From: Deltaproteobacteria bacterium
Lineage (GTDB): Bacteria; Myxococcota_A; Polyangia; Fen-1088
NCBI GenBank assembly: GCA_033763315.1
Contig: JANRKS010000009.1
Location: 332,789-396,788, forward strand
Direction of reading: 5' to 3'
Length of the DNA stretch: 64,000 bases
Position numbers and translations under genes: made by a program. Below, piece by piece: positions 6,437 through 20,300 of this stretch (positions are counted from its first letter, which is position 1; each line of letters opens with the position of its first letter). The notes under the pieces were generated by a model that made no database searches, had not been told where the DNA came from, and saw nothing but the letters and a program-made list of their open reading frames with translations.

Positions 6437-7804
6437 ATGTCTGACACGCGCAAATTGTTTGGAACCGACGGCATTCGCGGCAAAGCGAACCAGTACCCTA
6501 TGACAGCCGAGGTGGCCTTGCGGCTGGGTATGGCGGTGGCTCATCACTTTAGGCACAAGGATCGCCGGGGCCGCATCGTGATTGGCAAAGACACGCGCCT
6601 TTCGGGCTACATGCTTGAAAGCGCCTTGGAGGCGGGCATCGTGGCGGCGGGCGCGGATGTGATGCTTGTGGGGCCGTTGCCCACGCCAGGCATTGCGTTC
6701 GTAACGTCATCCATGCGAGCTGACGCCGGCGTGGTGATCAGCGCTTCGCACAACCCTTACCAAGACAACGGCATCAAGCTGTTTGCCTCGGATGGCTTCA
6801 AGCTTCCCGACGAGGTGGAGGCCGAAGTCGAAGCTGTGATGGCGAAGATCGAAGCGGGCGATGAGGGCCACGCGGCTGGCGCAGACGAGATCGGAAAGGC
6901 CCTGCGCATTCAGGACGCCGAAGGCCGGTACATTCAATCGCTAAAGCAAGCGTTTCCCAAAGATCGCACCTTGGATGGCGTGCGTGTGGTGGTGGATTGT
7001 GCCAATGGCGCGGCCTACCAGGTGGCCCCACGTGTGTTCACGGAGCTGGGCGCCGACGTGATTGAACTTGGCACCAACCCTGACGGTCGCAACATCAACG
7101 AACGTTGTGGCGCTTTGTTTCCCGAAAACGCCGCCGCTGAAGTGCGACGCACGCGCGCAGAGATTGGCGTGTCACTTGATGGCGATGCCGATCGCTTGAT
7201 CATGTCCGACGAACGTGGGCAAGTGGTGGACGGTGATCAGATCTTGGCCATCTTGGGCCGGCACCTCAAAGCGAAGGGCAAACTGGCTGGCAATACAGTG
7301 GTGGCCACGGTGATGTCGAACTTGGGCTTGGAGCGTGCCTTGGCCGATGTGGGCGCAAATCTGATGCGTGCGTCGGTGGGCGATCGTTATGTGGTGGAGG
7401 CGATGCGCGCTGGCAACTTCACGTTGGGTGGCGAGCAATCGGGACACATCCTTTCGCTTGAGCACGCGAGCACGGGCGATGGCACGATGGCCGCGTTGTT
7501 GGTGATGGCGGTGATGGCCGAGACAGGCAAGACGCTGGGCGAGCTGGCCAAGTGCATGACGCGTTTTCCGCAGGTGTTGGTGAATTTCCGCGTGCCGCAA
7601 AAGATACCCATCGAAGAGCTGCCTGAAGTGCAGAAAATCATCTCGGAAGTGGAGAAACAGTTGGGTAAAGAAGGGCGCGTGTTGGTGCGGTATTCCGGCA
7701 CCGAGGCCAAGGCGCGCGTGATGATCGAAGGCACTGACGAGAACTTCATTGCCACACGCGCTGACGACATCGCGCGCGTGATGCAAAAAGCCCTGGTCAT
7801 GTGA
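6437..7804 (+). CDS. glmM: Phosphoglucosamine mutase
   Basis: [22 protein letters not shown] (phospho-Ser), DGDADR, GGEQSGH, RYSGTE. Confidence 0.98.
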
Positions 7805-7824
7805 ACGTGGCGAAGGAGCCCGGC

Positions 7825-9396
7825 ATGGCCAGCGTATTTACCGCCGCCCAAGCGCGGGCGTCAGATCAATTTGTGATGTCCACGTTGGGCTTGCCGGGCG
7901 TGGTGTTGATGGAAAATGCGGGGCGCGGGGTGGCGCGCGTGATTCGCCGGGCGCTGCTCAAGAAGAATCAGACGCTGGCAAACGCCAAAGTTGTTGTGGT
8001 GTGTGGTGCGGGGCAAAACGGTGGCGATGGCTTTGTGATCGCGCGGCACCTGCATCTGATGGGCGCGCGTGTGCAAGTTTATTTGGTGATGCCAGCGGCG
8101 AAGATCCAAGGCGACGCGGCGGTGAACCTGCGGGCATTGCAGGGCCTTGACGAGGTGCCGGTGGACGACGTGAGCGATGTGCTCGACGAAGAAGCCTGGT
8201 GGGATTGGCTCAACGACGCGGACGTGTTGGTTGACGCGATCTTTGGTACTGGTTTGCGCGCGGACGTTACGGGTGTGCCTGCGGTGGCCATCGCGGCGAT
8301 GAACGAAAGCCGCGCGCTGCGTGTGGCTGTGGACGTGCCGTCGGGGCTCAATGCCGACACGGGCCGGGTGCAGGGCGTGGCGGTCAACGCTGACGTCACG
8401 GCGACCATGGCCGTGCGCAAGCTAGGTTTGGTGGTGGATGCCGACGCGCCGGTGGGTGAGGTTGTGGTTGTGGGCCTTGGGGCCCCACCGCATGAGGATC
8501 CGGCCTTGGCGCCGTTTGTGCGTTGGGTGGAACCAGCTTTGGTGAAGGCCTGGCTGCCGGTGTTCGGTGCCGCCGCTCACAAGGGAACACGCGGGCACGT
8601 GCTGCTCGTTGCGGGCTCGGAAGGTAAAACCGGCGCCGCGGCTTTGTGCGGTCGTGCGGCGCTGCGTGCAGGTGCGGGCTTGGTGACTGTGGCCACAACG
8701 AAAGCCGCGCAGACGGCGGTGGACGCGAAGGTGTGGGAAGTGATGTCAGCGGCATTTACGTCCGTTGATGACGCCACCCCCGACAGCTTCGATGTGGTGA
8801 TGCGGTTGTCATCAAAGATGAAGTCGATCGGCCTTGGCCCAGGTTTGCCCACCGGCCCGGGAACAGCGGCTTTCGTGCAGCGGATGGCGGTGCAATGCGC
8901 TTTGCCGATGGTCATCGATGCAGAAGCGTTGAATCACATCGCTGCCGACCCCGGCGTTTTGATGCAGGCACGTGGGCCCCGCGTATTGACACCGCATCCA
9001 GCCGAGATGGCGCGGCTGTTGGGCGTCACAACAACCGACGTGCAGGCCGATCGCGCGACGGCAGCACGAACGCTGGCGCAGAAAACGCAGGCGATCGTGG
9101 TGCTCAAAGGCGCACGCACCCTGGTTGCTTTGCCGAACGGAACTCTTTATGTGAACCCTGCGGCGTCGCCCGCGCTTGGCACCGCGGGCAGCGGCGACGT
9201 TTTGACGGGGGCAATCGCCGCGTTGTTGGCGCAAGGGCTCACGGCGGAGCAGGCAAGTGTGTGTGGTGTGTTCGTGCACGGCATGGCGGCCGATGACGCC
9301 TGTGCTCGCTTGGGTTTGCAGCACCTTTTGGCCGGCGAGCTGCCTGACGCGTTTGCGCGCGTGCAAGCCGCCCTGCAGTCGGTTCCTCAGATCTGA
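7825..9396 (+). CDS. nnr: Bifunctional NAD(P)H-hydrate epimerase/dehydratase (YjeF)
   Basis: LMENAG, GQNGGDG, DAIFGTG, DVPSG, HKGTRG, GAGLV, TPHPAE, VLKG, GSGDVLTG; ATG 7825 chosen for its AAGGAG RBS (ORF track starts at GTG 7801). Confidence 0.96.
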   Translation: MASVFTAAQARASDQFVMSTLGLPGVVLMENAGRGVARVIRRALLKKNQTLANAKVVVVCGAGQNGGDGFVIARHLHLMGARVQVYLVMPAAKIQGDAAVNLRALQGLDEVPVDDVSDVLDEEAWWDWLNDADVLVDAIFGTGLRADVTGVPAVAIAAMNESRALRVAVDVPSGLNADTGRVQGVAVNADVTATMAVRKLGLVVDADAPVGEVVVVGLGAPPHEDPALAPFVRWVEPALVKAWLPVFGAAAHKGTRGHVLLVAGSEGKTGAAALCGRAALRAGAGLVTVATTKAAQTAVDAKVWEVMSAAFTSVDDATPDSFDVVMRLSSKMKSIGLGPGLPTGPGTAAFVQRMAVQCALPMVIDAEALNHIAADPGVLMQARGPRVLTPHPAEMARLLGVTTTDVQADRATAARTLAQKTQAIVVLKGARTLVALPNGTLYVNPAASPALGTAGSGDVLTGAIAALLAQGLTAEQASVCGVFVHGMAADDACARLGLQHLLAGELPDAFARVQAALQSVPQI

Positions 9397-11654
9397 ACGC
9401 CCAGCACGAATCCGGGGTACAAGCGGACGGTGGTGTCGCCGTCACGGTAAACCTTCTCAAGCACCCCGAGCCCGGCCTTGTAGTCCATCTTGTTCCAAGA
9501 CGTTTCCACGTTGAATGTGGGGCCGAGGGTAAGCGCGAAGTGCTTCGCGACGGAATAACCCAAAACCGCGCGCAAAGTGCCAAGCGTGCTGTCGCGCTCG
9601 CCATAGTCGGAACTGTTGCCCATCTGCGTGCCGACCACATCGAGATCCACCCACATCGGCCCGCCTGGTGGCGTGATGTGAAAACCAAGACCCAAGTGTG
9701 TGCTGTACGTTTGGCGATCATCGTCGCCCTTGGTGATGCCGCCGCCCAACACAGTGTAGAAGTGTCGCGCGCCGAGTTTCAGGCTCACGTTCGTGCGGCT
9801 CGTGTCGCTCGTATAGAACGAGAGGCCGTGGTAGCCGTCCCTTACAAAAGGAATGATGCCCACCGAAGCGCCTTCCATAGAATTGGCAACATTCACAACG
9901 CCAATCTGCGTGCCTTTGACTTTTGAGGCCACGTTGACGACGCCAATTTGTGCACCCGTGACAGTGCCACCGATGTTAACCACGCCCATCTGGAGGCTGC
10001 CGTCAAGAACGCCTGCCAGGTTGACGACACCCGCTTGGAACCCCTTGAACTCACCGCGGTTGACGTTTATCACCGCCGGCGCAAAGCCCACGAACTTGCC
10101 GCTGTTGTAATTGATGACGGCCGCTTGCACGCCTTTGAAGTCACCCTCAGACCAATTGAACATCGCGGCCTGCACGCCCGTGAAAGCGCCATGCGATACG
10201 TTCAACAGCGCTCCCGTTTGCAAACCGTAAAAGCCACCCAAGGCCATGTTGACGCCAGATGAGAACTGCGCACCCCTGCCATAGCCGCGTGACAGGTTAA
10301 GTCCTGTGGCGAATTGGGCGCCATGCATTTCGCCTTCAACGATGTTGCCGCCCAGCGATAGCTGCACCCCGCGCAGTTCGTCTGAATGGCCAAGCAGGCC
10401 CAAAACAAACCTGTGGCGCACCTTTTGTTCGGGATGCCCAGACAGACGCACGCCCGGGGCTGCGACCAGATCGAAAGCCACATCGCGCAGCGGCTGCGCT
10501 TCGGATTCACCATCACCGCGTAAGGTCGCCACAAACGAAGTGGTGGGCGCAAAGTCGTTCTGTGCCAGCTGACGGCGCTTGCCTTTTTCGAGCGTCACGT
10601 TGGTTTCAAAAGGACGGCCATCGGCATCAAGCAGCACACGGTACGTGCCTGGGCCGAGGCCGAGTTCCACGGGATAAACAGGCTCTTTGCGCAACTCAAC
10701 CAACAGGCGCCCGGCGGCGTCTCGCACGTAGATGCGTCCAGAGAGCGTTTCGTTGAGCACCAACGTGGCGTCGGTGGCGCGCAGATCCGTCATCACCAGA
10801 TCGCCCGTGCCAGCGAGTTGAATGTCGTACGCAGCATGTTGAGCGCCCGCGTGGCTCTTTTCTGTGCGGCGCAGGGTTTCGTCGTAAGCGAACTGATACG
10901 CTTCACCCAACGTCACCTTGCCGTCGCGGCTGCTGTCGGCGGCGCCGCGCAAACCAGAAACCAAATAATGTGTGAAGAAGGCCGCTCCCACGCGGTCTGA
11001 TTCTTGGGCCGATTCATCGGCGGAGCTGGCCGTTAAGAACGCGTGGCCACGAGCGTCGCTGCTGACGTCTGCAAGGAACGGCGCGCGCATGGCGCCGCCC
11101 TTGAGGCGAATCATGGCGCCCGACGAACATGAATCCAAAATGGCGATGCGTACGTCGGCGCCCAAATCTTGAATCCACTGGCGAAGCTCGCGGTACGTGA
11201 TGCGGTCGCTGCCCAGCAACAGGCCCTCTTCGTCAGAGTGGCCCGAGTAATACACGAACAATTCTTTGCGCGTGCCGGGTGCCTGCGCTTCTTGCAAGCG
11301 TGTGCGCAGCTTATCAAAGCCGATCTCCACACTGGTGCGGTTGGCGTTTGGCAACATGATGAGATCGCGCGGATCCAATCCGCCCAATTGCATGAGCACA
11401 TCCGACATGGCCTTGGCGTCAGAGTTGGCAAAGCGCAATTGTGCGCGGCTGCCACCGCCATTGTTTGAGGAAGCGATGAGCGCGTACCGACGCAGGTGCG
11501 ATGATGGTGCATGCGCATCGGCAAGCGCCGCGCGATCGACGAGGCAAAGCAGCGCAACGACGATCGCAAAAGCCAGAAGCAGACGTGCGATGAACAGCGA
11601 CAGCGCTTGCGATGCAAAGGCGGGCGCGCGAACAACGGTGCGAGAAGGCATCAC
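9387..11654 (-). CDS. Exported caspase-like (peptidase C14/orthocaspase) protein with GxQxxxxN beta-solenoid repeats and probable C-terminal beta-barrel
   Basis: Signal-peptide-like N-terminus; RYALI...N...LRFA.SDA, YYSGH (His) and ILDSC (Cys) dyad, FFTHYLVSGLRGAAD...DGKVTL; ~12 repeats; amphipathic strands ending in GFVLGVQI; start 11654 (GTG) or 11651 (ATG), overlapping the upstream stop. Confidence 0.9.
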   Translation of the reverse strand: MMPSRTVVRAPAFASQALSLFIARLLLAFAIVVALLCLVDRAALADAHAPSSHLRRYALIASSNNGGGSRAQLRFANSDAKAMSDVLMQLGGLDPRDLIMLPNANRTSVEIGFDKLRTRLQEAQAPGTRKELFVYYSGHSDEEGLLLGSDRITYRELRQWIQDLGADVRIAILDSCSSGAMIRLKGGAMRAPFLADVSSDARGHAFLTASSADESAQESDRVGAAFFTHYLVSGLRGAADSSRDGKVTLGEAYQFAYDETLRRTEKSHAGAQHAAYDIQLAGTGDLVMTDLRATDATLVLNETLSGRIYVRDAAGRLLVELRKEPVYPVELGLGPGTYRVLLDADGRPFETNVTLEKGKRRQLAQNDFAPTTSFVATLRGDGESEAQPLRDVAFDLVAAPGVRLSGHPEQKVRHRFVLGLLGHSDELRGVQLSLGGNIVEGEMHGAQFATGLNLSRGYGRGAQFSSGVNMALGGFYGLQTGALLNVSHGAFTGVQAAMFNWSEGDFKGVQAAVINYNSGKFVGFAPAVINVNRGEFKGFQAGVVNLAGVLDGSLQMGVVNIGGTVTGAQIGVVNVASKVKGTQIGVVNVANSMEGASVGIIPFVRDGYHGLSFYTSDTSRTNVSLKLGARHFYTVLGGGITKGDDDRQTYSTHLGLGFHITPPGGPMWVDLDVVGTQMGNSSDYGERDSTLGTLRAVLGYSVAKHFALTLGPTFNVETSWNKMDYKAGLGVLEKVYRDGDTTVRLYPGFVLGVQI
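9850..10380 (-). repeat. Intragenic ~15-16 aa tandem repeats (G-x-Q-x-G/A-x-x-N), LA_2272-like surface beta-solenoid
   Basis: e.g. FTGVQAAMFNWSEG, FKGVQAAVINYNSG, FKGFQAGVVNLAG, VTGAQIGVVNVAS, VKGTQIGVVNVAN; coordinates approximate. Confidence 0.8.
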
Positions 11655-12430
11655 TGTGGGTCCTTTTTGAAGGTCACTTGGAAGCTGGTGGTGTCGGCAG
11701 GCAACGCCGCGCCCGTTTGCAGCGCGGTTGTGATGGTTTGCGATTCAAACGGCGTGGGCGAAAGCACCAGCCAAAACCGTTCAAACCCTTTGGAGTTATC
11801 CAACTCGTAGGCGTTGGGAAGGCGGTTTTCACCGTTGGTTTGCAACGTGGGTGCGCGCCCAGGCACCGAAGGAAGATGCAGCGTGGTGGTGTTCGCTGCG
11901 TCGATGGACACGATCACGCCATAAGGGGCTGCCGCGCCTTGGGCGTTGGGGGGGACCACGTAAGCCACTTGCAGCACGTCGCCTGGGTGAACAACATCTT
12001 GCGCGGTTAGGCGTTCAGGTGCGCCTTCGCGTTTGCGATAGACGACGAGGTGAGGCTTGGCGCCTTTGATGTTGATTGTTTCTTCGCCCACGTCAGTCAC
12101 CAAGGTGGTGGTTGAGCGTGGCGCCACAGCGATGAGGACCAGTGCACCCACAGCGCCGAGCGCGAGGGCCGGTAAGACGAACGGGCGCCGCGCGGGCTTG
12201 TTCGTTTGTTGACCGGATCGACGACGGATTTCGTTCGCCATCCAGTGCGGTGGGTGACGGGAGAAGATCTCGTCGTCTGACTTGGCCAAGTTTTCCATGG
12301 CTGCGGCGAGGCCGCCTGGTTGTTGTTCAAGTCGTTGCCGTAACTCTTCTGCCTGAGCTTGCGGCAATTCGCCTTTGGCCAGACGTTCAAGCAGATATTG
12401 CGGCACGGGCGTGTGTTGGCGGTTTGTCAT
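11651..12430 (-). CDS. Putative single-pass anti-sigma factor (ActD-like / DUF4384-like periplasmic domain)
   Basis: N-terminal helical ASD-like segment (LLERLAKGEL...) lacking ZAS cysteines, TM (FVLPALALGAVGALVLIAV), Ig-like C-terminal domain (VHPGDVLQVAY...YGVIVSID...AYELDNSKGFERFW); start overlaps the ECF stop (TAATG). Confidence 0.75.
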   Translation of the reverse strand: MTNRQHTPVPQYLLERLAKGELPQAQAEELRQRLEQQPGGLAAAMENLAKSDDEIFSRHPPHWMANEIRRRSGQQTNKPARRPFVLPALALGAVGALVLIAVAPRSTTTLVTDVGEETINIKGAKPHLVVYRKREGAPERLTAQDVVHPGDVLQVAYVVPPNAQGAAAPYGVIVSIDAANTTTLHLPSVPGRAPTLQTNGENRLPNAYELDNSKGFERFWLVLSPTPFESQTITTALQTGAALPADTTSFQVTFKKDPQ

Positions 12431-12951
12431 TAATGCACCAAACTTGCGGGAAGGTCTGTGGCTGCCTCTTGTGGCAGACGTTCTTTGAGCACACGCAAAC
12501 GCTTGCGCACACCCGAAACGGAAAGCCCCACCTCCGCCGCCACCTCTTCCAAGGTCAATCGGTCCACGTAGTGCAAAACGGCGATGAGTTGCGTTGATGG
12601 AGGTGTGCCTGAAAACAGGCGCTGCAACACCCGGCGCCCCAGCGACAAGCTTTCACTGTCGCCGCCTTCGCCGAGCCCACTGATGTGGTGAAGCATCACG
12701 GTATCGGGATCGGTTTCGTGCTCGGGGTGCCGCTTCTCGGTCCGCAGCCGGTTGAGGCACACATTTGTGGCCGCTTTGAGCAGCAGCCCCGCGGGAGCTT
12801 CTTGGGTGAGTGTGTCTTGGCGACGCAGCATTACTACGAATGTGTCTTGCATGGCATCCAGGGCTTTCCCCTCGTCTTTGAGCAGGCGGCGACAGCGCCG
12901 CAGGACCATCGGTCCGAACTGCCTGTAGAGGTTTTCAACGTCGAGCGCCAT
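12430..12951 (-). CDS. ECF RNA polymerase sigma factor
   Basis: Region 2 (LYRQFGPMVLRRCRRLL...DAMQDTF...ATNVCLNRLR) and region 4.2 HTH (LTLEEVAAEVGLSVSGVRKRL); likely start ATG 12951, since the longer ORF overlaps the lipoprotein gene. Confidence 0.93.
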   Translation of the reverse strand: MALDVENLYRQFGPMVLRRCRRLLKDEGKALDAMQDTFVVMLRRQDTLTQEAPAGLLLKAATNVCLNRLRTEKRHPEHETDPDTVMLHHISGLGEGGDSESLSLGRRVLQRLFSGTPPSTQLIAVLHYVDRLTLEEVAAEVGLSVSGVRKRLRVLKERLPQEAATDLPASLVH

Positions 12952-12971
12952 TGGTGGGGTTCTTAACCTGA

Positions 12972-12999
12972 AACACCGGCGCGGAAAGAAAGTGTTACC
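12972..12999 (-). promoter_or_regulatory. Putative ECF promoter of the sigma/anti-sigma/caspase operon
   Basis: Minus strand GGTAACA-ctttctttccg-CGCCGGTGTT, about 20 nt before the ATG, with an A/T tract just upstream; same motif at 16640-16667. Confidence 0.75.
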
Positions 13000-13046
13000 G
13001 CGAAGATCAAAAAAATTTTGGCTCCACTGGCCCGGCGCGCTACGCG

Positions 13047-14114
13047 TCACGGGAGGACTTGGATGCTCATCTGTCGCCAGCCGGTGCCGCCACGCAGGTC
13101 GCGGACCACCATCCACAGTGACACCATGCCGCCGGTGGCAGCCGGGGGAACGTCGGGCGCTGTGAACACGTTGTCGAACGTCTTTGTGAGGGCCGCGGCG
13201 GTGCGGTCGGAGCCCAGGGCACCCGCTGTGGCAAACCACGAGACGACGGGCTGCTCCTTCGTTTCGATGATTTCAAGCCGGCTGTCCTGCAAGGCCGACT
13301 CGATGCTTTGGTAAGGCTCAAACGCGCCCTCTGAAAGGGTGGGCAGCAAGCGCACCTTCTCCTTGGCCCTCATAACCAACGCGCCATCAACGGGCGCAAA
13401 CGGGAGGCCTGCTGTGCTTCCGCGGGCAACGGACACGGAGGTGATCTGCGGGTTCTGGTTGGGCGTGCGCGGACGCACGGCAAGGCAACCTGGTACCGGT
13501 GCGTTTGCCTCACATACCCGAAAGCCGAAAGTGGTCGACAGCTCGGGGTTCCACTGGGATAGGTCCAACGCGTTTAATGTCACGCGCTTTTGCACCGTCA
13601 CAGTTTGCGGCCCGGCGTTCACAGTCAACACGGCCGACGGCCACGCCCCGTTGCCCAAGCCCATGGCCGAAGCGTCGAGGTGATAAGTGAACAGCTCTGC
13701 GGGCCACGCGGAAGCAAACGGGGCCACATCTTGCGCGCCGATGCCTTTGTCGGCCGCGGGCGTGCTTGTGCCCGTCATCGCCTGCGCAAACAGGGCGTCC
13801 AGCATGGGCCGCAGGGGCTGGGGCGCTTGATCACGAAGCGCCGGAAAGTTCGTGCACGCTTCGGCAGAATCCACCGGGCAGAACCGCCACGCGAAGGTCG
13901 CAGGCGCACCGCCGCGTGGATCGTCCACCAAGGCGGTGAACGTCACTTGCGGCGCGCTCCAGCCGGCTGTGCGATCGAACAGCACCTCCGGAGGCTCAGC
14001 CGCCACGGCCAACACGCGCAGGTCTTTGACTTCGGTGGGCTTGTCGCTGGGCTCACCGCAGGCAGCCACAAGCGTCGCGCTGGCTAAGAGTGAGAAAATA
14101 AGTGGGGTTTTCAT
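13047..14114 (-). CDS. Lipoprotein of unknown function, TonB-receptor associated
   Basis: Lipobox LVAA-C; DLRVLAVAAEPPE at the start and WMVVRDLRGGTGW at the end resemble myxobacterial TBDR-partner lipoproteins; start overlaps the TBDR stop (TGATG). Confidence 0.75.
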   Translation of the reverse strand: MKTPLIFSLLASATLVAACGEPSDKPTEVKDLRVLAVAAEPPEVLFDRTAGWSAPQVTFTALVDDPRGGAPATFAWRFCPVDSAEACTNFPALRDQAPQPLRPMLDALFAQAMTGTSTPAADKGIGAQDVAPFASAWPAELFTYHLDASAMGLGNGAWPSAVLTVNAGPQTVTVQKRVTLNALDLSQWNPELSTTFGFRVCEANAPVPGCLAVRPRTPNQNPQITSVSVARGSTAGLPFAPVDGALVMRAKEKVRLLPTLSEGAFEPYQSIESALQDSRLEIIETKEQPVVSWFATAGALGSDRTAAALTKTFDNVFTAPDVPPAATGGMVSLWMVVRDLRGGTGWRQMSIQVLP

Positions 14115-16609
14115 CAGATTTCACCTTTCACGCCCACGATGGGCAATACGGGCAGGCCACGAAGCTCGGTGCGCTCTGCATAACGGTAGTCGTATCCAAC
14201 GGCCTCCACGGGACGCCGGTTGTACGTGTTCATCACTTCCAAATAGCTGGTCAAGCTCCAGCCTTTGAAGTCCCAACGCTTGTCGAAGCGCAGGTCCAGG
14301 CGATGGAACGTAGGCAACCGTTCAGACGCACGCGCCACGGAGCCGTTTTGCACTTTATAGGTATCGCTATCAGCGTCGAAGTGGGAGCGGCCCTTCTCAA
14401 GTGGCGTTGTAGGGTTGCCAGATACGAGTTGGAAGCGGAAACCGAGTGACATCTTCCACGGCAATTGCCACGCGCCCACCGCCGTGAGGATGTGTGTTTG
14501 ATCGAACGGCGAAAGATACGTGCTGGCCACTTTCGGCAGTTCATAAAGCCGGGCCGATCCTGGATCGACGCTGGCGTATTGGTTGATGCCGCCGAGCGTG
14601 GCCGTGCGATCTGTGCGCGTGGAGCGCGACAAGGTATACGCCACCCAGCCGTTGAAACGCCGGTGCTCGGCCGGGTTGCGCTTCACCATCAATTCAAGGC
14701 CATACGAATGCCCGCGGCCGTCGCTCTTGAACAGCACAGGCGTGGCCTTGCCATCTTTGTAGGTCACTTCATCTGTGGGCGAGGGCAGATTGGATCGCCA
14801 CACATTGAACACCTCGGCGCTTAGGTTCACGGCTTCGAGACTTCGTTCGGCGCCGCTCGTTATATGCACGGCTTTTTCAGCCGAAAGATTGGGCTGGCCA
14901 AAACCATCAACCATCACGCCCGAAAAAAGATCGGGCAGTTTTTGGTAAACGCCGGCCGAGGCTTTCACCGATGTTTGCTCGTTGATTTGCCAGCGGCTCG
15001 CCAAGCGCGGCTGGAACGTGAAGCGTTCGGTGCTGTCGAAATCCAAGTGATCCACGCGCAAGCCAGGCGTCAAGGTCACATCGGGATGAGGGTTGACGAC
15101 AAGCTCCGTCCAATAGCCCTGGTGCAGATCTGTGTTGCCGTCCTTCCATGGGTCTTGTCGAGTGGGATCCACGATCAACGGCGATGGGTACGTGCGACCG
15201 AGGTTCGGCAGCTCGGTAATGAAGTCGGCGCTCCAATGGTAAAGCTGGCTGTCGATGCCGGCGCGCAACTTTATATAGGGGGAAAACGCATAGGTCGCAG
15301 TTTCTTTCCAGCTCAAGCTTGTGATCGTCACGCCCGAACGGTGTTGCGTATCGAGCTCTGCTGATTTGTCGCCGAAGTCCTGCTTCAGCAAGCCCGGCGT
15401 CAGCGCGGATTCAAGCGTTAGTTTGTTGCCAAAATACGTGTGCCGCACTTGCAAACGGTGAAATTGCACGCCGCCTGAGAGTGAGAAGTCAGCGTCTTCG
15501 GCTGATGTGGCACGCACGACTTTAAGCGTGTCGCGGGCTCCAAAGGCAAAGATGTCCCAACGTTGGTGGGCGTCGTGGTGTTCAGCTTTGATCTGATAAT
15601 CAAGGTAGGCGGGGGTCACGATGGTGGGGCTTTCACCGTCCTTGGCGGCCCCCTCAAGCAGTGCGGGCAAAAACGCATCCACGTAAGAACGGCGCCCGGC
15701 GAGCGCGAGCTTCCACGATCCCAGCGGCACGCACGTGAAGGCTTCTGCATCAATCGGATCGATCGAGGCCAGCGCGCGTGTGCGGTCGCAAGTTAACGGC
15801 TTGGTTTGCACATCCACGATGCCCGCCGTGGCACGACCATACTGCGCGCCAAAGCCGCCTGGCATGAAGGTGATGCCACCTAAGAACTCAGCGTTGATCA
15901 CCGACGTTAGGCCGCCGAAGTGATAAAGCAGCGGCACTTCAACACCATCGATGTACACGCCGCTATCAGCAGGGTTGGCCCCGCGCACGATTAACGCCCC
16001 ACCAATCCCTCCGGGCGCGCGGTTCATACCGGGCAGGTTCTCGACCACGCGCACCGGATCGCCCATCGTCCCGGGCACCGTCTTGATTTCACTGTCCGTG
16101 AGCACGATCTCCGTGACTTCACGCTTGGGACGCGACGCTTTTGCCTTCACCTCGAACACCACCGCCTCGGCTTGTGTCAGGCGGTAGCGCACGGGCACGT
16201 CCACGTTGGCGTCGATTTGCACCTCACCGTCTTTCGGATCGTATTCACCGCTCATCACCAACACGCTGTGCGGGCCCGTACGCAAGGGACGCACCAACAG
16301 GTTGCCGTCGGCGTCGGTTTCACCGCGCGCGTCGCCGTCAATCATCACGGTTGCGCCGGGCACTGGCTCTCCCGTCTTCCCGTCAACGAGCGTCAGCCGC
16401 AAGCCGCCGTGCTGTTTGATCTGCACAGGCGGCGGTGGTGCCATTTCGGTTGGTGCGGCGGGCGTCGCCTCGGGCGGGGGCGAGGTTTCCGTGGGCGTGT
16501 CGGTTGGCCCTTCCGCTTGCGGCGGCGCGGGATCCTGTGCCAAGGCGGCGTGCGCCCAGGCAGGCAGGGCGAGCACGCAAGCGATCGTCAGTCTGATTGT
16601 CTTCTTCAT
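14114..16609 (-). CDS. TonB-dependent outer-membrane receptor with N-terminal Pro-rich linker and carboxypeptidase-regulatory-like domain
   Basis: Signal peptide; DGKTGEPVPGATV; plug (PGTMGDPVRVVENLPG, IVRG, LYHFGG, GGFGAQYGRATAG); barrel motifs (QPRLASRW, GHSYGLELM, WVAYTLSRS, FDQTH, RLDLRFD, N.YN). Confidence 0.93.
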   Translation of the reverse strand: MKKTIRLTIACVLALPAWAHAALAQDPAPPQAEGPTDTPTETSPPPEATPAAPTEMAPPPPVQIKQHGGLRLTLVDGKTGEPVPGATVMIDGDARGETDADGNLLVRPLRTGPHSVLVMSGEYDPKDGEVQIDANVDVPVRYRLTQAEAVVFEVKAKASRPKREVTEIVLTDSEIKTVPGTMGDPVRVVENLPGMNRAPGGIGGALIVRGANPADSGVYIDGVEVPLLYHFGGLTSVINAEFLGGITFMPGGFGAQYGRATAGIVDVQTKPLTCDRTRALASIDPIDAEAFTCVPLGSWKLALAGRRSYVDAFLPALLEGAAKDGESPTIVTPAYLDYQIKAEHHDAHQRWDIFAFGARDTLKVVRATSAEDADFSLSGGVQFHRLQVRHTYFGNKLTLESALTPGLLKQDFGDKSAELDTQHRSGVTITSLSWKETATYAFSPYIKLRAGIDSQLYHWSADFITELPNLGRTYPSPLIVDPTRQDPWKDGNTDLHQGYWTELVVNPHPDVTLTPGLRVDHLDFDSTERFTFQPRLASRWQINEQTSVKASAGVYQKLPDLFSGVMVDGFGQPNLSAEKAVHITSGAERSLEAVNLSAEVFNVWRSNLPSPTDEVTYKDGKATPVLFKSDGRGHSYGLELMVKRNPAEHRRFNGWVAYTLSRSTRTDRTATLGGINQYASVDPGSARLYELPKVASTYLSPFDQTHILTAVGAWQLPWKMSLGFRFQLVSGNPTTPLEKGRSHFDADSDTYKVQNGSVARASERLPTFHRLDLRFDKRWDFKGWSLTSYLEVMNTYNRRPVEAVGYDYRYAERTELRGLPVLPIVGVKGEI

Positions 16610-16639
16610 GGTCCGTCCGATGTGGGGATTCCTCCCAAG

Positions 16640-16667
16640 AACACCGGCGGATGAAAAAGCTGTTACC
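16640..16667 (-). promoter_or_regulatory. Putative ECF promoter of the TBDR-lipoprotein operon
   Basis: Minus strand GGTAACA-gctttttcatc-CGCCGGTGTT, about 30 nt before the TBDR ATG; 17/17 flanking bases and the spacing match 12972-12999. Confidence 0.75.
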
Positions 16668-16742: not shown

Positions 16743-17225
16743 TCATGGAACGGACGTCTCTTCGAGGGCCGCCAGCAACCGCAGCAGCGTTGCATGCATG
16801 TGCTTCGCATCGGCGGTCCCAATCACGTTGCCTAGCTGCGCTTCAAGCTCGCCCAACATGGCCAAACCCATGAGCAGCCCCTTTTTCCCGCGTGCCGAAA
16901 ACATCACCAACCGCGCGCGGCCATCGGCCGGATCCGCCACTTGCTCAAGCAGGCCCATTTCCACCAGCTCCTCCACCAATTGCCCCACGGCCTGCTTGCT
17001 GATACCCACACGTTCCGCCAAGACACCGGGCCGCGTTCCTTGCAGATCAATATGGGGGAACAAAGCTGTGTGTGAGGGCCGCACGTGTTGTTTGGTCCGT
17101 TTTTGCAAAAGTGCCAGCGCGCGCTCGTTGAGTAGACGCGCACACTTGAACAGCACCTGCGCCCAAGAAGCATTCTTGGCGACGGCAAGCGCGGCGGCAA
17201 ACTCATCGGAAGGGGGGGCTGGCAT
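16743..17225 (-). CDS. MarR-family transcriptional regulator
   Basis: wHTH LAERVGISKQAVGQLVEELVEMGLL and DPADGRARLV...G; ATG 17225 preferred over TTG 17234. Confidence 0.9.
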   Translation of the reverse strand: MPAPPSDEFAAALAVAKNASWAQVLFKCARLLNERALALLQKRTKQHVRPSHTALFPHIDLQGTRPGVLAERVGISKQAVGQLVEELVEMGLLEQVADPADGRARLVMFSARGKKGLLMGLAMLGELEAQLGNVIGTADAKHMHATLLRLLAALEETSVP

Positions 17226-17234
17226 ATGGTCCAA

Positions 17235-17276
17235 TAGTAAAGTGCACTTGACTAATTCGTCAAGTTTGCTTTACTA
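17235..17276. promoter_or_regulatory. Divergent overlapping sigma70 promoters with twin MarR-type operators
   Basis: TAGTAAAGtgcACTTGAC-taattc-GTCAAGTttgCTTTACTA inverted repeat; TTGACT (+) and TTGACG (-) -35 hexamers lie inside it. Confidence 0.7.
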
Positions 17277-17281
17277 AACCC

Positions 17282-17971
17282 ATGCCTGCCACAACGCTTA
17301 CGGAAATCGCAGACGGTTTATGGGGCTTGGAGGATGAGTTGAGCCTGCCTGGTGGCGCGAAGCTGCCCGTCAGAGCCACCGTGGCCGCGCTGGGCGATGG
17401 CGGCCTCGCGATCTACAGCCCCGTTGCGATGGCCGAACAGGCCGCCGCAGCGGTGGCAAAGCTGGGCCGTCTTCAATATGTGATCGCCCCTTCAGGCCTG
17501 CACCACCTTTACGTGGCACCCACGCTCGCCAAGTTCCCCGAAGCCAAACTCTATGCATCGCCGGTGGTGGCGAAAAAACGCAAAGGCCTTCGCTTCGATG
17601 GCGTGCTGACCGATGGGCTGCCGCCAGGGCTGGCCGCGGTGTTTTCCGCGCTGACGATCGAAGGCGCCCCTGCGGTTCAAGAAACGGTGATGGTGCACAA
17701 TCCCACCGGTTCGCTGCTCGTTACGGATCTGTTATTCAACATCACGCACCCTCGCGGTTGGATGTCGAAGTTTGTTCTCGGCTGCACGGGCACCAACGGG
17801 CGCCTGGCGCAGAGCCGACTTTGGCAGTTTTACGGCAAAGACAAAGCAGCGCTGAAAACCAGCACGCAAAAGATGCTGGATCTGTCGTGGGACCGTCTGA
17901 TTCCGTGCCACGGTGAAGTGTTGGCCACCGGCGCGAAGAACGCCGTGACCGCGGCTCTGCGCTGGAAGTGA
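17282..17971 (+). CDS. DUF4336-like (metallo-beta-lactamase-fold) protein
   Basis: R.TV..L.DGGL.IYSPV, IAPSGLHHLY, ETVMVH..TGSLLVTDL, WDRLIPCHGEV. Confidence 0.8.
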   Translation: MPATTLTEIADGLWGLEDELSLPGGAKLPVRATVAALGDGGLAIYSPVAMAEQAAAAVAKLGRLQYVIAPSGLHHLYVAPTLAKFPEAKLYASPVVAKKRKGLRFDGVLTDGLPPGLAAVFSALTIEGAPAVQETVMVHNPTGSLLVTDLLFNITHPRGWMSKFVLGCTGTNGRLAQSRLWQFYGKDKAALKTSTQKMLDLSWDRLIPCHGEVLATGAKNAVTAALRWK

Positions 17972-17975
17972 AGCT

Positions 17976-20300
17976 TTACGGGCGCGTCCAATTCGGAAAC
18001 GGCAAACCTTGTTCGCGGTTGTACCCGCGCACGTAAGACACGATCGTGTTTTGTTCATCCACCAAGATGAACGTGGGGGTGGCGCTAATCCCGTACGTCA
18101 CGAAGGTTGTGCGCCCTAGATCGCTGGCCACGTTATCCGGGAAGGGTTGTTTGCGCTTGGCGAAGAACGCGTCGAGCGTGCTGCGATCTTCATCCGTCAC
18201 CGCCAGGATTGGGATCTTGCGGGCCGTGGAGAACTGCATTAGCTCGGGCACGGCCGCTTTGCACGGCCCACACCACGTGGCCCAGTAAAACAGCACATAG
18301 GGCCCCTGCGCCAGCTTGGCGGGCGCTTGGCCGCGGTAACTTTCGAGCGGAATCAATGATTGCGCGTGTTCGCCTTCTTTGGGCCGCGTGGGCAGCTTCG
18401 GCAATTCGGAAGGGTAGGGCGATAGCGTGATGTTCACGACGCGGCTTTTGCCATCGCGCACGATGACCAGCGGCAACGGCTGCAAGGTCGGGGAGAGCAT
18501 TGTCCAACTGCGCACCTGGTTGTTGTCGGCGAACGGCGCGCCCGGCGGTCCCAGCACCACGTCGGAGGCGCGCAGCCCGGCTTTTGCCGCGGGCGAATTG
18601 GGGAACACGCGGCGGATCAAAGAAGCGCCCGAAGGCAGTTTCAAACGCGCGGCCAACTTATCGGCGGGTGGTTGAAACTCAATGCCCAACCATGCGGGAA
18701 AAACGGCCTGGGCTTGTGTGAGGTCGTCTTCGTATGAAGGCAACGTTGGCGCGGCCTTCTCGCCACCGCCTTCGTCGGCGCGCAGCCCCAGCCCGAACTG
18801 CTCACACTGCGTAAGCAGCGCCAAAGCCTTCTTCTGCGCCTCTGTGCCAGCCGTCTCCACCAACACGCGGCCCGCGATGTTGGCCAACACCATGCGCATG
18901 CGCAGCATCGCCGCCAAGCGGACCTCCATGCGGTAAGAAACTTCGTTCACTGTGTCCAATCGGTTGGCCACCAGCATCAGCCGTTTGTGGCGTTCGGCCT
19001 GTTGTTCAGTGAAGGGCACAAGCTCGGCCAGGAGCGCCGACGCCAAAGCGCGGCGTTCGCTTTGTGGCAGCACGTTGATCGCGCGCGGTTGCAAGCGTGC
19101 GTTCCACAGCGGCTTGCTCTTGAGGAAGTCGTGCAGGTTGCCGTTCGTGATGTCGGAAAGTGCGTCGTCCCAAAGTTTGCCATGCCGCTCAAGTTGCTCT
19201 TGCGCCTCTTGCAGCTGTTGCTCGGGCCCAGCCAGTTCCTTTTGGCTGCGCGGCGAGAACAACCCGTAAGAGCGCCCAATCGCATCTAGCAAGCGGATGT
19301 CCGGCTCGAAGCGCGCTTTGTCTCTCCACGCCTTCTGCAGCCACGCATCGATGCCGTCGTCGAAATCAGCGTTCGTTTTTTTTGCGTGGCTTTCCAGCAG
19401 ATCCAACAAGAACACGTCGCTTGTGCGCAAAGGCACGTCGGGCGAATCGTCGTTCACCAAGGTGTCTGTGTGTGCTTTTGCAAAATTGCGGCCTGCTTGC
19501 AGCGATTCGAAGAACCGAAAGGCGTGGCCCACGGCGTCTTGCCCGACGTTCTCGGGGAAACAACCGTAGGCAGGGCGATCCGCGGTGGATGAAAAATACC
19601 CGCACACGTTGCCGCCCGGCAGGCCTTGTTTGCCATGCGTTTGATAAAGGTTGGCAAAGCCGCCCGAAAAGCATTGCGACATCAAAGTCACCACACGCAC
19701 GCGCGGGTCGAACCCCTCCAGCAACACCCGCAATTGCCGCGCGGATATGCCTGCACGCGCGCCCCACAGAGTGATCTGGCTTTGCCACGGATCTTTGGTG
19801 TCGTTGTTGCCGTGGTCCGTGACAAACACCAACAGCGTGTCGCCTGGGGGAATCTTTCTGCGGGCCTTTTGAAACCACTGTGTGAGTTGCCCTTGCGTGG
19901 CTGGCTGCAAGGTGATGCCGGGCAACGTTGAATTGATAAGATCCAACGAAGGCGCCAGTAGCTCTTGCAGTTGGGTTCGATCCAACAGCCACAAGCCCTC
20001 CTCGGCCGTGGCGTCTAACACCGCCAGATCGGGCGCGGGGTCCGCACCATCGCCAGCCAGAACGCTGATGTGATCACGGGGCACATTCGCCTTATCCACC
20101 AACGCAAGAAACTGTTTGAGGTGCGATAGGTGTGAGCGGAAGTTTTGGTTGGGAGTTCCTCCCCCGCTGACCATCAATACGTGCACGTGCTTCGGATCCA
20201 CGCCGGCGGGGAGAGGGGGCGCGGCTTCTACGGGCCGATCGGCGTGGAGGTGGGCCAGAACAACCAGGACAGCAAGACAGGACGGAAGGCGTGAAGACAT
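17976..20300 (-). CDS. Exported clan-CD (legumain/C13-like) peptidase - helical region - PDZ - TlpA-type thioredoxin fusion
   Basis: Signal peptide; LLVFVTDHG and TLMSQCFSGGF dyad; PDZ (WLGIEF...VFPNSPAAKAGLRASDVV...IVRDG); FYWATWCGPCK...YGISATPTFILVD. Confidence 0.8.
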   Translation of the reverse strand: MSSRLPSCLAVLVVLAHLHADRPVEAAPPLPAGVDPKHVHVLMVSGGGTPNQNFRSHLSHLKQFLALVDKANVPRDHISVLAGDGADPAPDLAVLDATAEEGLWLLDRTQLQELLAPSLDLINSTLPGITLQPATQGQLTQWFQKARRKIPPGDTLLVFVTDHGNNDTKDPWQSQITLWGARAGISARQLRVLLEGFDPRVRVVTLMSQCFSGGFANLYQTHGKQGLPGGNVCGYFSSTADRPAYGCFPENVGQDAVGHAFRFFESLQAGRNFAKAHTDTLVNDDSPDVPLRTSDVFLLDLLESHAKKTNADFDDGIDAWLQKAWRDKARFEPDIRLLDAIGRSYGLFSPRSQKELAGPEQQLQEAQEQLERHGKLWDDALSDITNGNLHDFLKSKPLWNARLQPRAINVLPQSERRALASALLAELVPFTEQQAERHKRLMLVANRLDTVNEVSYRMEVRLAAMLRMRMVLANIAGRVLVETAGTEAQKKALALLTQCEQFGLGLRADEGGGEKAAPTLPSYEDDLTQAQAVFPAWLGIEFQPPADKLAARLKLPSGASLIRRVFPNSPAAKAGLRASDVVLGPPGAPFADNNQVRSWTMLSPTLQPLPLVIVRDGKSRVVNITLSPYPSELPKLPTRPKEGEHAQSLIPLESYRGQAPAKLAQGPYVLFYWATWCGPCKAAVPELMQFSTARKIPILAVTDEDRSTLDAFFAKRKQPFPDNVASDLGRTTFVTYGISATPTFILVDEQNTIVSYVRGYNREQGLPFPNWTRP

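Follow-up and report, generated by a model that had tools for sequence, protein, structure and literature searches.

Does a caspase homologue that is encoded directly behind a sigma factor of the extracytoplasmic function (ECF) type and its presumed anti-sigma factor act on that anti-sigma factor, and which of the genes around it belong to the same system? The question is raised by a locus in Deltaproteobacteria bacterium GCA_033763315.1, which we analysed within a stretch of 64,000 nucleotides (nt) of contig JANRKS010000009.1 (positions 332,789-396,788, forward strand; referred to as the window in the rest of the text). The locus comprises five genes at window positions 9387-16609, all on the minus strand, in two units with overlapping codons, one coding for a TonB-dependent receptor (TBDR) and a lipoprotein and the other for the ECF sigma factor, the anti-sigma candidate and the caspase. 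An earlier reading made from the letters of the window (the sequence-only reading) had taken all five for one caspase-gated cell-surface signalling system. The results presented below assign the conserved core to the second unit, and we propose, with a probability of about 0.5, that the caspase makes the site-1 cut in the anti-sigma factor, within a self-contained envelope signalling module.

Conservation of the sigma factor, anti-sigma and caspase genes

The lipoprotein start codon overlaps the TBDR stop codon as TGATG, and the sigma/anti-sigma and anti-sigma/caspase junctions read TAATG and GTGATG, respectively. Together with the coordinates of the genes, these junctions confirm the earlier description of five co-directional genes in two coupled units.

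A word search with the anti-sigma candidate yielded 18 relatives, and a profile built from 16 of them matched 6807 cluster representatives (E≤0.001), of which 2136 reach E≤1e-30; of the 150 profile matches listed, nearly all have a length of 250-300 residues. Among 401 sampled genomes of the phylum, 138 contain a match to the family at E≤1e-5. A caspase homologue adjoins the anti-sigma gene in all of the best 29 loci from other genomes, and a sigma factor gene does so in 28 of them. In a set of 20 loci with flanks of about 9.5 kb, 13 from genomes already represented among the 29 and 7 from new ones (36 distinct genomes together), the caspase was present in all 20 and the sigma factor in 19. 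The caspase gene adjoins the anti-sigma gene in 36/36 relatives' loci examined, as expected from the earlier remark that such triads occur in other myxobacterial genomes. The genes overlap by 4 nt at the sigma/anti-sigma junction in 15 of 19 loci and at the anti-sigma/caspase junction in 14 of the 18 loci that have both genes on the same strand, while the caspase gene is divergently transcribed in two loci belonging to one family, each time behind its own copy of the promoter motif described below. The TBDR and lipoprotein genes adjoin the triad in 1 of the 20 loci, which are spread across the phylum; in that locus, from genome G385, their position is downstream of the caspase gene. The survey of gene neighbourhoods that had been suggested as a check was borne out as far as the triad is a strongly conserved unit, and not for the TBDR as a standing member of it. 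The conserved core is the ECF sigma/anti-sigma/caspase triad, not all five genes.

The genome of the window codes for two further triads, on contigs 28 and 11 (L054:4991-8061 and L056:4974-7845). Their caspase frames are about 547-549 residues long and the caspase profile spans only the first ~363 positions, which indicates that their C-terminal parts differ from that of the protein studied here.

No description of an ECF sigma/anti-sigma/caspase triad was found among the best matches listed in the literature searched. Judged by titles and abstract openings, the literature on the domain family DUF4384, which the anti-sigma weakly resembles (see below), does not have such an operon as a subject. 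The word caspase is absent from the main text of the ECF reclassification (PMC7826278) and from the part of its supplement examined, in which DUF4384 is mentioned only for ECF25 anti-sigmas. We regard the triad as a real module that is conserved widely and has apparently not been characterised.

A candidate cleavage site and a candidate protease

Judged by its profile matches, the 173-residue protein is an ECF sigma factor (sigma-70 group 4). It scores 38.8 bits against Sigma70_r2 (cut-off 24) and 56.6 bits against TIGR02937 (cut-off 42.9), and its Sigma70_r4_2 score of 24.3 bits lies just below the cut-off of 25.7.

The 259-residue product of the following gene is predicted to be a single-pass anti-sigma factor and is a candidate binder and inhibitor of this sigma factor. 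In its structural model (mean predicted local distance difference test, pLDDT, of 86.3), four cytoplasmic helices and a transmembrane helix are joined to a confident periplasmic beta-sandwich by a disordered linker, both flanks of which are confidently modelled. Across the family, this linker consists of 17-39 residues of low complexity and variable sequence, and always ends in a conserved R-x-K-G-type motif. The position of Lys122 is occupied by Lys in 167 of 170 alignment rows, that of Gly123 by Gly in 168, and the position two residues before the Lys by Arg in 137; Lys122-Gly123 is also invariant in two further anti-sigma alignments (A1 and A3). It is plausible that the linker holds a cleavage site at this junction.

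The window protein matches no Pfam family at E≤0.01 and no NCBIfam family, which includes the absence of a FecR domain (Pfam, E≤0.01) and upholds the earlier statement that the anti-sigma is not FecR-like; no HxxxCxxC motif is visible in its sequence. Two relatives, P0012 and P0010, match NF052375 and NF010501 at E-values of 1.3e-7 to 3.5e-4, below the cut-offs, and one relative carries the NCBI name 'ActD-like protein' (name only). DUF4384 (PF14326) matches the window protein with 12.6 bits (cut-off 27; E 0.15), a resemblance and not a membership, and gives weak matches in 9 of 16 family members (best E 0.0029). A Foldseek search with the anti-sigma model returned nothing at E≤0.001, the best match being a RhoGDI-like immunoglobulin (Ig)-like fold at E 4e-3. 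Folds that match its beta-sandwich include the Ig-like AGS-C domain (Z 9.2) and macroglobulin (MG) domains (Z 8.0-8.6).

These last matches bear on an alternative in which the sandwich would be a bait or inhibitor that holds the caspase, so that the anti-sigma reports the occupancy of the caspase in the manner of a partner switch or a protease trap; signalling would set in when other substrates, for example damaged outer-membrane proteins, draw the caspase away or activate it. The MG domains in question are those of alpha-2-macroglobulin and complement, DUF4384 is described as a frequent fusion partner of proteases, and some Csx30 proteins, themselves substrates of a caspase-like protease, have it as their C-terminal domain (bioRxiv 10.1101/2022.08.17.504292). 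The Z-scores are middling, however, and may reflect only a common Ig-like arrangement: values near 8 fall in the range that the fold-search tool deems uninformative. An invariant basic residue in a disordered linker also fits a cleavage site better than an inhibitor, and although the present data do not separate a bait from plain cleavage, we think the bait an improbable arrangement.

The 755-residue protein matches Peptidase_C14 (PF00656) over residues 55-239 with 32.5 bits (cut-off 21.4). In a model computed from a 21-sequence alignment (mean pLDDT 82.8), the caspase domain aligns with Arabidopsis metacaspase 4 (6w8r; VIA Z 18.6, root-mean-square deviation (rmsd) 3.0, 207 residues aligned), MALT1 (3v4o; Z 16.8) and Geobacter GSU0716 (3bij; Z 15.6). 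It is followed by a modelled beta-sandwich (approximately residues 295-370), and the top Foldseek matches are to the MALT1 caspase-Ig3 unit (E 1.3e-5). The catalytic dyad that had been read from the sequence, His139 (SGH139) and Cys176 (DSC176), is invariant in 21/21 aligned orthologues. Export, also claimed before, is supported by the hydrophobic leader at the N-terminus and by the short, typical signal peptides of most aligned orthologues. Asp174, two residues before the catalytic Cys, is likewise invariant and appears to hold the place of the S1 Asp by which metacaspases select a basic residue at P1; a preference of this kind is expected here. It is described for orthocaspases such as Microcystis MaOC1 in the abstract of PMC6426788. 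Profile, dyad and caspase-hemoglobinase fold place the protein in family C14, and we infer that it is a protease that cuts after Arg or Lys.

The orthocaspase has a basic motif of its own. R183, K185, G186 and G187 are invariant in the 21 aligned sequences and form an R-x-K-G-G motif after the catalytic Cys. Among 120 proteins that share the C-terminal module described below, 83 have the caspase signature and 77 of these have R-x-K-G-G, in each case within a 14-residue span of fixed place after D-x-C; in the remaining 6, an Arg or Lys occupies the position. We take this position to match, roughly, the inter-subunit linker at which caspases process themselves.

C-terminal to the Ig-like sandwich lies a beta-solenoid of LA_2272-type repeats (NF047436, 54.2 bits against a cut-off of 25, in three stretches), which aligns with the beta-helical antifreeze protein 3p4g (VIA Z 19.2, rmsd 2.5, 211 residues aligned). 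The protein is predicted to end in an eight-strand outer-membrane beta-barrel, matched to a designed transmembrane barrel (6x9z; VIA Z 15.7), OprF-N (4rlc; 14.5), NspA (13.2) and OmpA-TM (11.5); this is a fold match with no sequence-family match, and the number of strands comes from the DSSP string, not from coordinates. Known eight-strand barrels have both ends in the periplasm, so that the solenoid and the caspase domain would hang from the outer membrane into the periplasm. The number of solenoid repeats differs between orthologues, and the solenoid is absent from three of them (L041, L050 and L051). Because the barrel comes after the solenoid and the repeat number varies, a stalk or tether fits the solenoid better than the ligand sensor that the sequence-only reading had seen in it; that reading had the export and the dyad right and missed the barrel. 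By the model, the caspase would be a protease suspended in the periplasm from the outer membrane and not a free ligand sensor. The anti-sigma linker becomes shorter as the C-terminal part of the caspase lengthens (Spearman -0.44, P = 0.048, n = 21, with no correction for relatedness), a weak correlation that hints at a spacer role.

We propose the following course of events. The ECF sigma factor, which would be autoregulated, would be held by the single-pass anti-sigma, with the sandwich tied to the membrane by the linker. The barrel would anchor the orthocaspase in the outer membrane and the rigid solenoid stalk would keep the catalytic domain periplasmic. Upon an envelope signal, for which the state of the outer membrane or the geometry of the envelope is one possibility, the caspase would mature at its own R-x-K-G-G loop and cut the anti-sigma after the near-invariant Lys of R-x-K-G (Lys122), which would constitute site-1 cleavage. 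An M50 site-2 protease, for which genes are present in the genome, and cytoplasmic proteases would complete the release of the sigma factor. The freed sigma factor would then transcribe its own operon, including the caspase gene, and in this lineage also the TBDR-lipoprotein operon through a second copy of the promoter motif. This mechanism is plausible and directly testable, and is offered as a proposal only. It builds directly on gene order, conservation, motifs and domain architecture; topology, binding, cleavage, signal and regulon are what we add to these by deduction.

Promoter motif and candidate regulon

The motif GGTAACA-N11-CGCCGGTGTT precedes both units of the locus, with two matches in the window against 0.03 expected, a count reached by 0 of 100 shuffled sequences. 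A slightly looser pattern found the same two sites and no others in the whole 7,633,441-base genome, while a reversed control found none, in agreement with the earlier notice of one promoter-like motif before both units. Of 20 regions, one from the window and the others from 19 relatives, 18 have GT[GA]AC-N16-GGTG 20-64 nt upstream of the sigma factor start codon, from which autoregulation of the sigma factor is predicted; indeed, the ECF sigma factor looks autoregulated.

We built a weight matrix from these 18 sites, which themselves score 21.4-30.5 bits. The two window sites, at 27.0 bits each, tie for the top of the genome. The third-best match (23.5 bits) is on contig 34, 238087-238114 (+) (L053:2088-2115), in the gap after a large gene and directly before a gene (open reading frame L053:2125-2664) for a 179-residue protein with a signal peptide, a barrel-like sequence pattern and no Pfam family, which is a possible further member of the regulon. 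Two other matches in this genome, C32:202958 (22.7 bits) and C31:152181 (20.3 bits), have no plausible gene downstream and were taken as chance.

The 20 relatives' loci contain nine additional matches above 17 bits against approximately 0.2 expected, an estimate derived from the background in the genome of the window. They precede the G385 TBDR gene, both divergent caspase genes, two genes for solenoid-barrel paralogues, and the genes for a TSP3-repeat protein, a protein with a weak OMP_b-brl match and one unassigned product; the ninth is located just past the anti-sigma gene of L046, on a contig that breaks off ahead of the gene to follow. The two paralogues (L044:12512-13846 (+) and L047:8241-9575 (-)) are additional solenoid-barrel proteins without a caspase head, encoded directly after the triad and each behind its own copy of the motif.

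The product of the first gene of the other unit is a TBDR by its matches to PF07715 (33.4 bits) and PF00593 (74.9 bits), both above the cut-offs. It consists of a signal peptide, a Pro-rich linker, and CarboxypepD_reg (residues 71-144), Plug (170-263) and TonB barrel (372-787) domains, the barrel being of the 22-strand type. Its N-terminal extension is the CarboxypepD_reg domain, and STN (PF07660) gives no Pfam match at E≤0.01, so the receptor lacks a FecA-type STN domain, as had been stated. The lipoprotein belongs to a Myxococcota-rich family of unnamed proteins and has no Pfam or NCBIfam match; its nearest Atlas cluster has 914 members and no family, and its gene follows the TBDR gene in orthologous loci. 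An orthologue of the TBDR from the same genus (G401, 65% identity) has the motif at 24.0 bits and the same five-gene layout; one from the same family (G413, 54% identity) has it at 17.9 bits, and the G385 orthologue at 22.8 bits. None of the other 25 TBDR loci, 24 of them paralogues at 30-40% identity and one a second copy in G413 (58%), has a matrix match above 17 bits. Since the TBDR adjoins the triad in so few of the 20 loci, we regard it as a lineage-specific output, and the TBDR-lipoprotein operon appears to be a member, seen in four genomes, of a regulon of envelope proteins.

This composition of the regulon lends itself to another explanation of the caspase itself, namely that it is an output of the sigma factor and not its activator. 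The sigma/anti-sigma pair would sense envelope stress otherwise, for instance through a general site-1 protease or directly through the sandwich, and the caspase would be induced to process or clear envelope proteins, together with the TBDR, small barrels and TSP3 proteins. Indeed, the caspase gene always stands behind the motif of the sigma factor, even where it is transcribed separately; the candidate regulon consists of envelope proteins (the TBDR, the lipoprotein, the L044 and L047 solenoid-barrel paralogues, the TSP3-repeat and weak OMP_b-brl proteins and the small barrel-like protein of contig 34); and one sigma/anti-sigma paralogue pair of the genome has no caspase in view. What an output role leaves unexplained is the R-x-[KR]-G motif common to the anti-sigma and the caspase, located in the anti-sigma exactly at the end of the disordered linker. 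The adjacency in 36/36 loci, mostly with overlapping codons, is also tighter than is usual for a mere regulon member. We regard the output role as an alternative to be reckoned with, though a rather unlikely one.

The shared motif also bears on the original form of the proposal, in which the solenoid binds a soluble ligand and activates the caspase, and the induced TBDR imports the same ligand, a cell-surface signalling pathway of a non-STN kind. The motif is indeed common to the sigma factor and TBDR operons in four genomes, and the TBDR without STN and the anti-sigma without FecR agree with such a pathway. The solenoid, however, varies in repeat number, is missing from the three orthologues named above and is followed by an outer-membrane barrel; the length correlation with the linker hints at a spacer; and a TBDR that adjoins the triad in 1/20 loci cannot supply the general signal. 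The part of that proposal in which the ECF sigma factor induces itself and the receptor is supported by the motif here and in three related genomes, while nothing links the receptor to import of the sensed ligand, and the version as a whole strikes us as very improbable.

Several observations weigh against the caspase as site-1 protease. Co-transcription of the protease with its own substrate and the sigma factor would create a positive, self-amplifying loop that requires a gate, for which zymogen maturation and physical reach across the periplasm are candidates. The anti-sigma of the window has Asn instead of Arg at the -2 position (INIKG), and residues invariant just after a catalytic Cys could be structural instead of an autoprocessing site. 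The N-terminal domain of the anti-sigma has no Pfam family, so that its role is read from its position, its architecture and the weak NCBIfam matches of relatives; a search of the A3 profile against PDB sequences gave 0 matches at E≤10. The periplasmic orientation of the solenoid follows only from how known eight-strand barrels sit in the membrane. Two loci depart from the triad: on contig 24 of the genome of the window (L055:5611-7304) a sigma/anti-sigma pair has no caspase in view, and in G354 (L045, G354:C18) an anti-sigma (9552-10358 (-)) and a caspase stand behind a motif of 29.8 bits located directly upstream (10415-10442 (-)) with no adjacent sigma factor gene, which may be encoded elsewhere or lost.

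The features of the locus are listed in Table 1.

Table 1. Features of the five-gene locus, in window coordinates.
Feature	Position	Strand	Size or residues	Basis or remark
TBDR gene	14114-16609	minus	831 residues	Pfam
Lipoprotein gene	13047-14114	minus	355 residues	lipobox LVAAC; no family
ECF sigma factor gene	12430-12951	minus	173 residues	ATG at 12951; Sigma70_r2 and TIGR02937
Anti-sigma candidate gene	11651-12430	minus	259 residues	no family
Exported orthocaspase gene	9387-11654	minus	755 residues	GTG at 11654 or ATG at 11651
ECF-type promoter motif	16640-16667	minus		30 nt upstream of TBDR start codon
ECF-type promoter motif	12972-12999	minus		20 nt upstream of sigma factor start codon
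Anti-sigma, four cytoplasmic helices (model)		minus	11-73	model of pLDDT 86.3
Anti-sigma, transmembrane helix (model)		minus	88-101	model of pLDDT 86.3
Anti-sigma, disordered linker (model)		minus	104-120	pLDDT<50; flanks confident
Anti-sigma, periplasmic beta-sandwich (model)		minus	127-256	confident
Lys122-Gly123 codons, candidate cleavage site at linker/domain junction	12062-12067	minus		conservation in 170 rows
Caspase (C14) domain	10773-11501	minus	52-294	VIA Z, Pfam, invariant residues
Beta-solenoid, LA_2272-type repeats	9834-10493	minus	388-607	NCBIfam NF047436, VIA
C-terminal eight-strand outer-membrane beta-barrel	9390-9845	minus	604-755	VIA fold matches

Upstream of the locus, a gene for a MarR-family regulator (16743-17234 (-)) lies on the same strand, its end some 75 nt upstream of the promoter motif of the TBDR. 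Further upstream is a gene for a 774-residue protein (17976-20300 (-)) whose sole Pfam matches are to thioredoxin-like and AhpC-TSA domains at the C-terminus (662-763), the first ~660 residues having no family. On the other side (6437-9396 (+)), a phosphoglucomutase/phosphomannomutase gene overlaps by 4 nt a gene for a bifunctional NAD(P)H-hydrate repair enzyme (YjeF_N and Carb_kinase), which converges on the caspase gene so that the two reading frames overlap by 10 nt (9387-9396). The Pfam families of these neighbours (6437-9396 and 16743-20300) are phosphoglucomutase, NAD(P)H-hydrate repair, MarR, DUF4336 and thioredoxin; no Cas family is among them, and no search for an array of clustered regularly interspaced short palindromic repeats (CRISPR) was made.

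A possible outer-membrane platform, related systems and significance

The solenoid-barrel module also occurs with other heads. P0264, which matches the module at E 8.8e-29, carries STN at its residues 51-99, P0288 combines it with a CarbopepD_reg_2 head and a weak STN match, and P0280 has a CarbopepD_reg_2 head. In a further protein, P0190, the module stands with half a response-regulator receiver domain, and the gene start may be miscalled. Among Atlas clusters that look like the module, mostly from Bacteroidota, STN is found in 27-43% of members and FecR_C in 28%, shares that are a lead only, being under half. It is through STN that communication with FecR-type anti-sigma factors takes place, and the presence of this domain in relatives of the module supports a role of the module as a platform in the outer membrane from which signals cross the periplasm. 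From this we sketch a broader and, in our view, doubtful possibility: the module may serve generally as a platform in the outer membrane from which a signalling head reaches into the periplasm towards inner-membrane anti-sigmas, the head being STN in some proteins and, in Myxococcota and others, the caspase. Where the head is a caspase, the rigid stalk and the flexible anti-sigma linker would jointly gauge the width of the periplasm, and the protease would reach R-x-K-G only upon a change in outer-membrane state or envelope spacing.

The sequence-only reading had placed caspase-fold action on anti-sigmas only in the cytoplasm, in CRISPR settings. This does not hold: according to PMC11506125 and PMC6061681, DdvA of Myxococcus xanthus has a periplasmic TPR-CHAT domain of caspase fold, proposed to act by autoproteolysis before RseP, so that such proteolysis of an anti-sigma has a place outside the cytoplasm too. 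DdvS/DdvA is the closest known system, sharing with the present module a myxobacterial ECF sigma factor, a single-pass anti-sigma and a periplasmic His-Cys caspase-fold module proposed to make the first cut before RseP. In DdvA the TPR-CHAT module and the anti-sigma form one fused protein, and the proposal is that the module acts in trans within a dimer, whereas here the candidate protease is a separate C14 orthocaspase with a predicted outer-membrane anchor, the 259-residue anti-sigma carries only a sandwich of about 130 residues, small and DUF4384-like, and there is no zinc-binding CHCC motif and no regulon of CRISPR or of the cyclic-oligonucleotide-based antiphage signalling system (CBASS).

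In the type III-E craspase, as described in bioRxiv 10.1101/2022.08.17.504292, the TPR-CHAT protein Csx29 cuts Csx30, which holds RpoE together with Csx31. A caspase-family protease cutting the linker of a sigma-binding protein is the feature in common with the mechanism proposed here, and some Csx30 C-terminal domains are DUF4384. The craspase, however, is cytoplasmic, RNA-guided and CRISPR-linked, being associated with Cas7-11 and a CRISPR array, and its CHAT protease has no membrane or outer-membrane anchor, whereas the protein studied here is a putative C14 protease with a signal peptide and a modelled outer-membrane barrel and has no Cas family in its scanned neighbourhood. CHAT-domain proteins also figure in the gene context of ECF54 (PMC8999054).

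With the textbook FecA/FecR/FecI system the module would share an outer-membrane protein that signals across the periplasm to the anti-sigma of an ECF factor, and a TBDR gene in the regulon. The hallmarks of that system, STN on the TBDR and FecR with FecR_C on the anti-sigma, gave no matches here (Pfam, E≤0.01), and the outer-membrane partner would be the caspase-bearing eight-strand barrel, not the TBDR. In the Sigma-E/RseA/DegS/RseP pathway a periplasmic site-1 protease cuts the anti-sigma and an M50 protease follows; a dedicated site-1 cut is proposed here too, and the genome has the M50 genes. DegS is an inner-membrane PDZ serine protease, whereas the candidate here has a caspase fold, would be a Cys protease with a tether to the outer membrane, and shares an operon with its presumed substrate. 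With orthocaspases, metacaspases and MALT1 it shares the C14 fold, the His-Cys dyad and the expected basic P1, and the order of caspase and Ig-like domain is that of MALT1, but it differs from them in being exported, in its predicted outer-membrane anchor and in being encoded next to its candidate substrate. The module differs from the known systems in three respects, its separate C14 protease with this predicted anchor, its small anti-sigma and its lack of a link to a defence island.

Bacterial caspase homologues are widespread and, to our knowledge, almost none has a known physiological substrate. The module offers a specific and testable one, the neighbouring anti-sigma with its near-invariant R-x-K-G, and the second promoter copy newly names the TBDR-lipoprotein pair as a likely output that is a natural reporter. 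Also new is the sequence-level evidence that the anchor module is common to STN-bearing proteins, which hints at a wider design principle for trans-envelope signalling; if the platform and its gauge are real, they would amount to a caspase-based trans-envelope sensor with a defined substrate. If the caspase is the site-1 protease, the cut by an outer-membrane-tethered Cys protease would be a new route of anti-sigma inactivation, and the pairing of caspase and anti-sigma represented by DdvA and the type III-E craspase would reach into a very large family (2136 representatives, 138/401 genomes).

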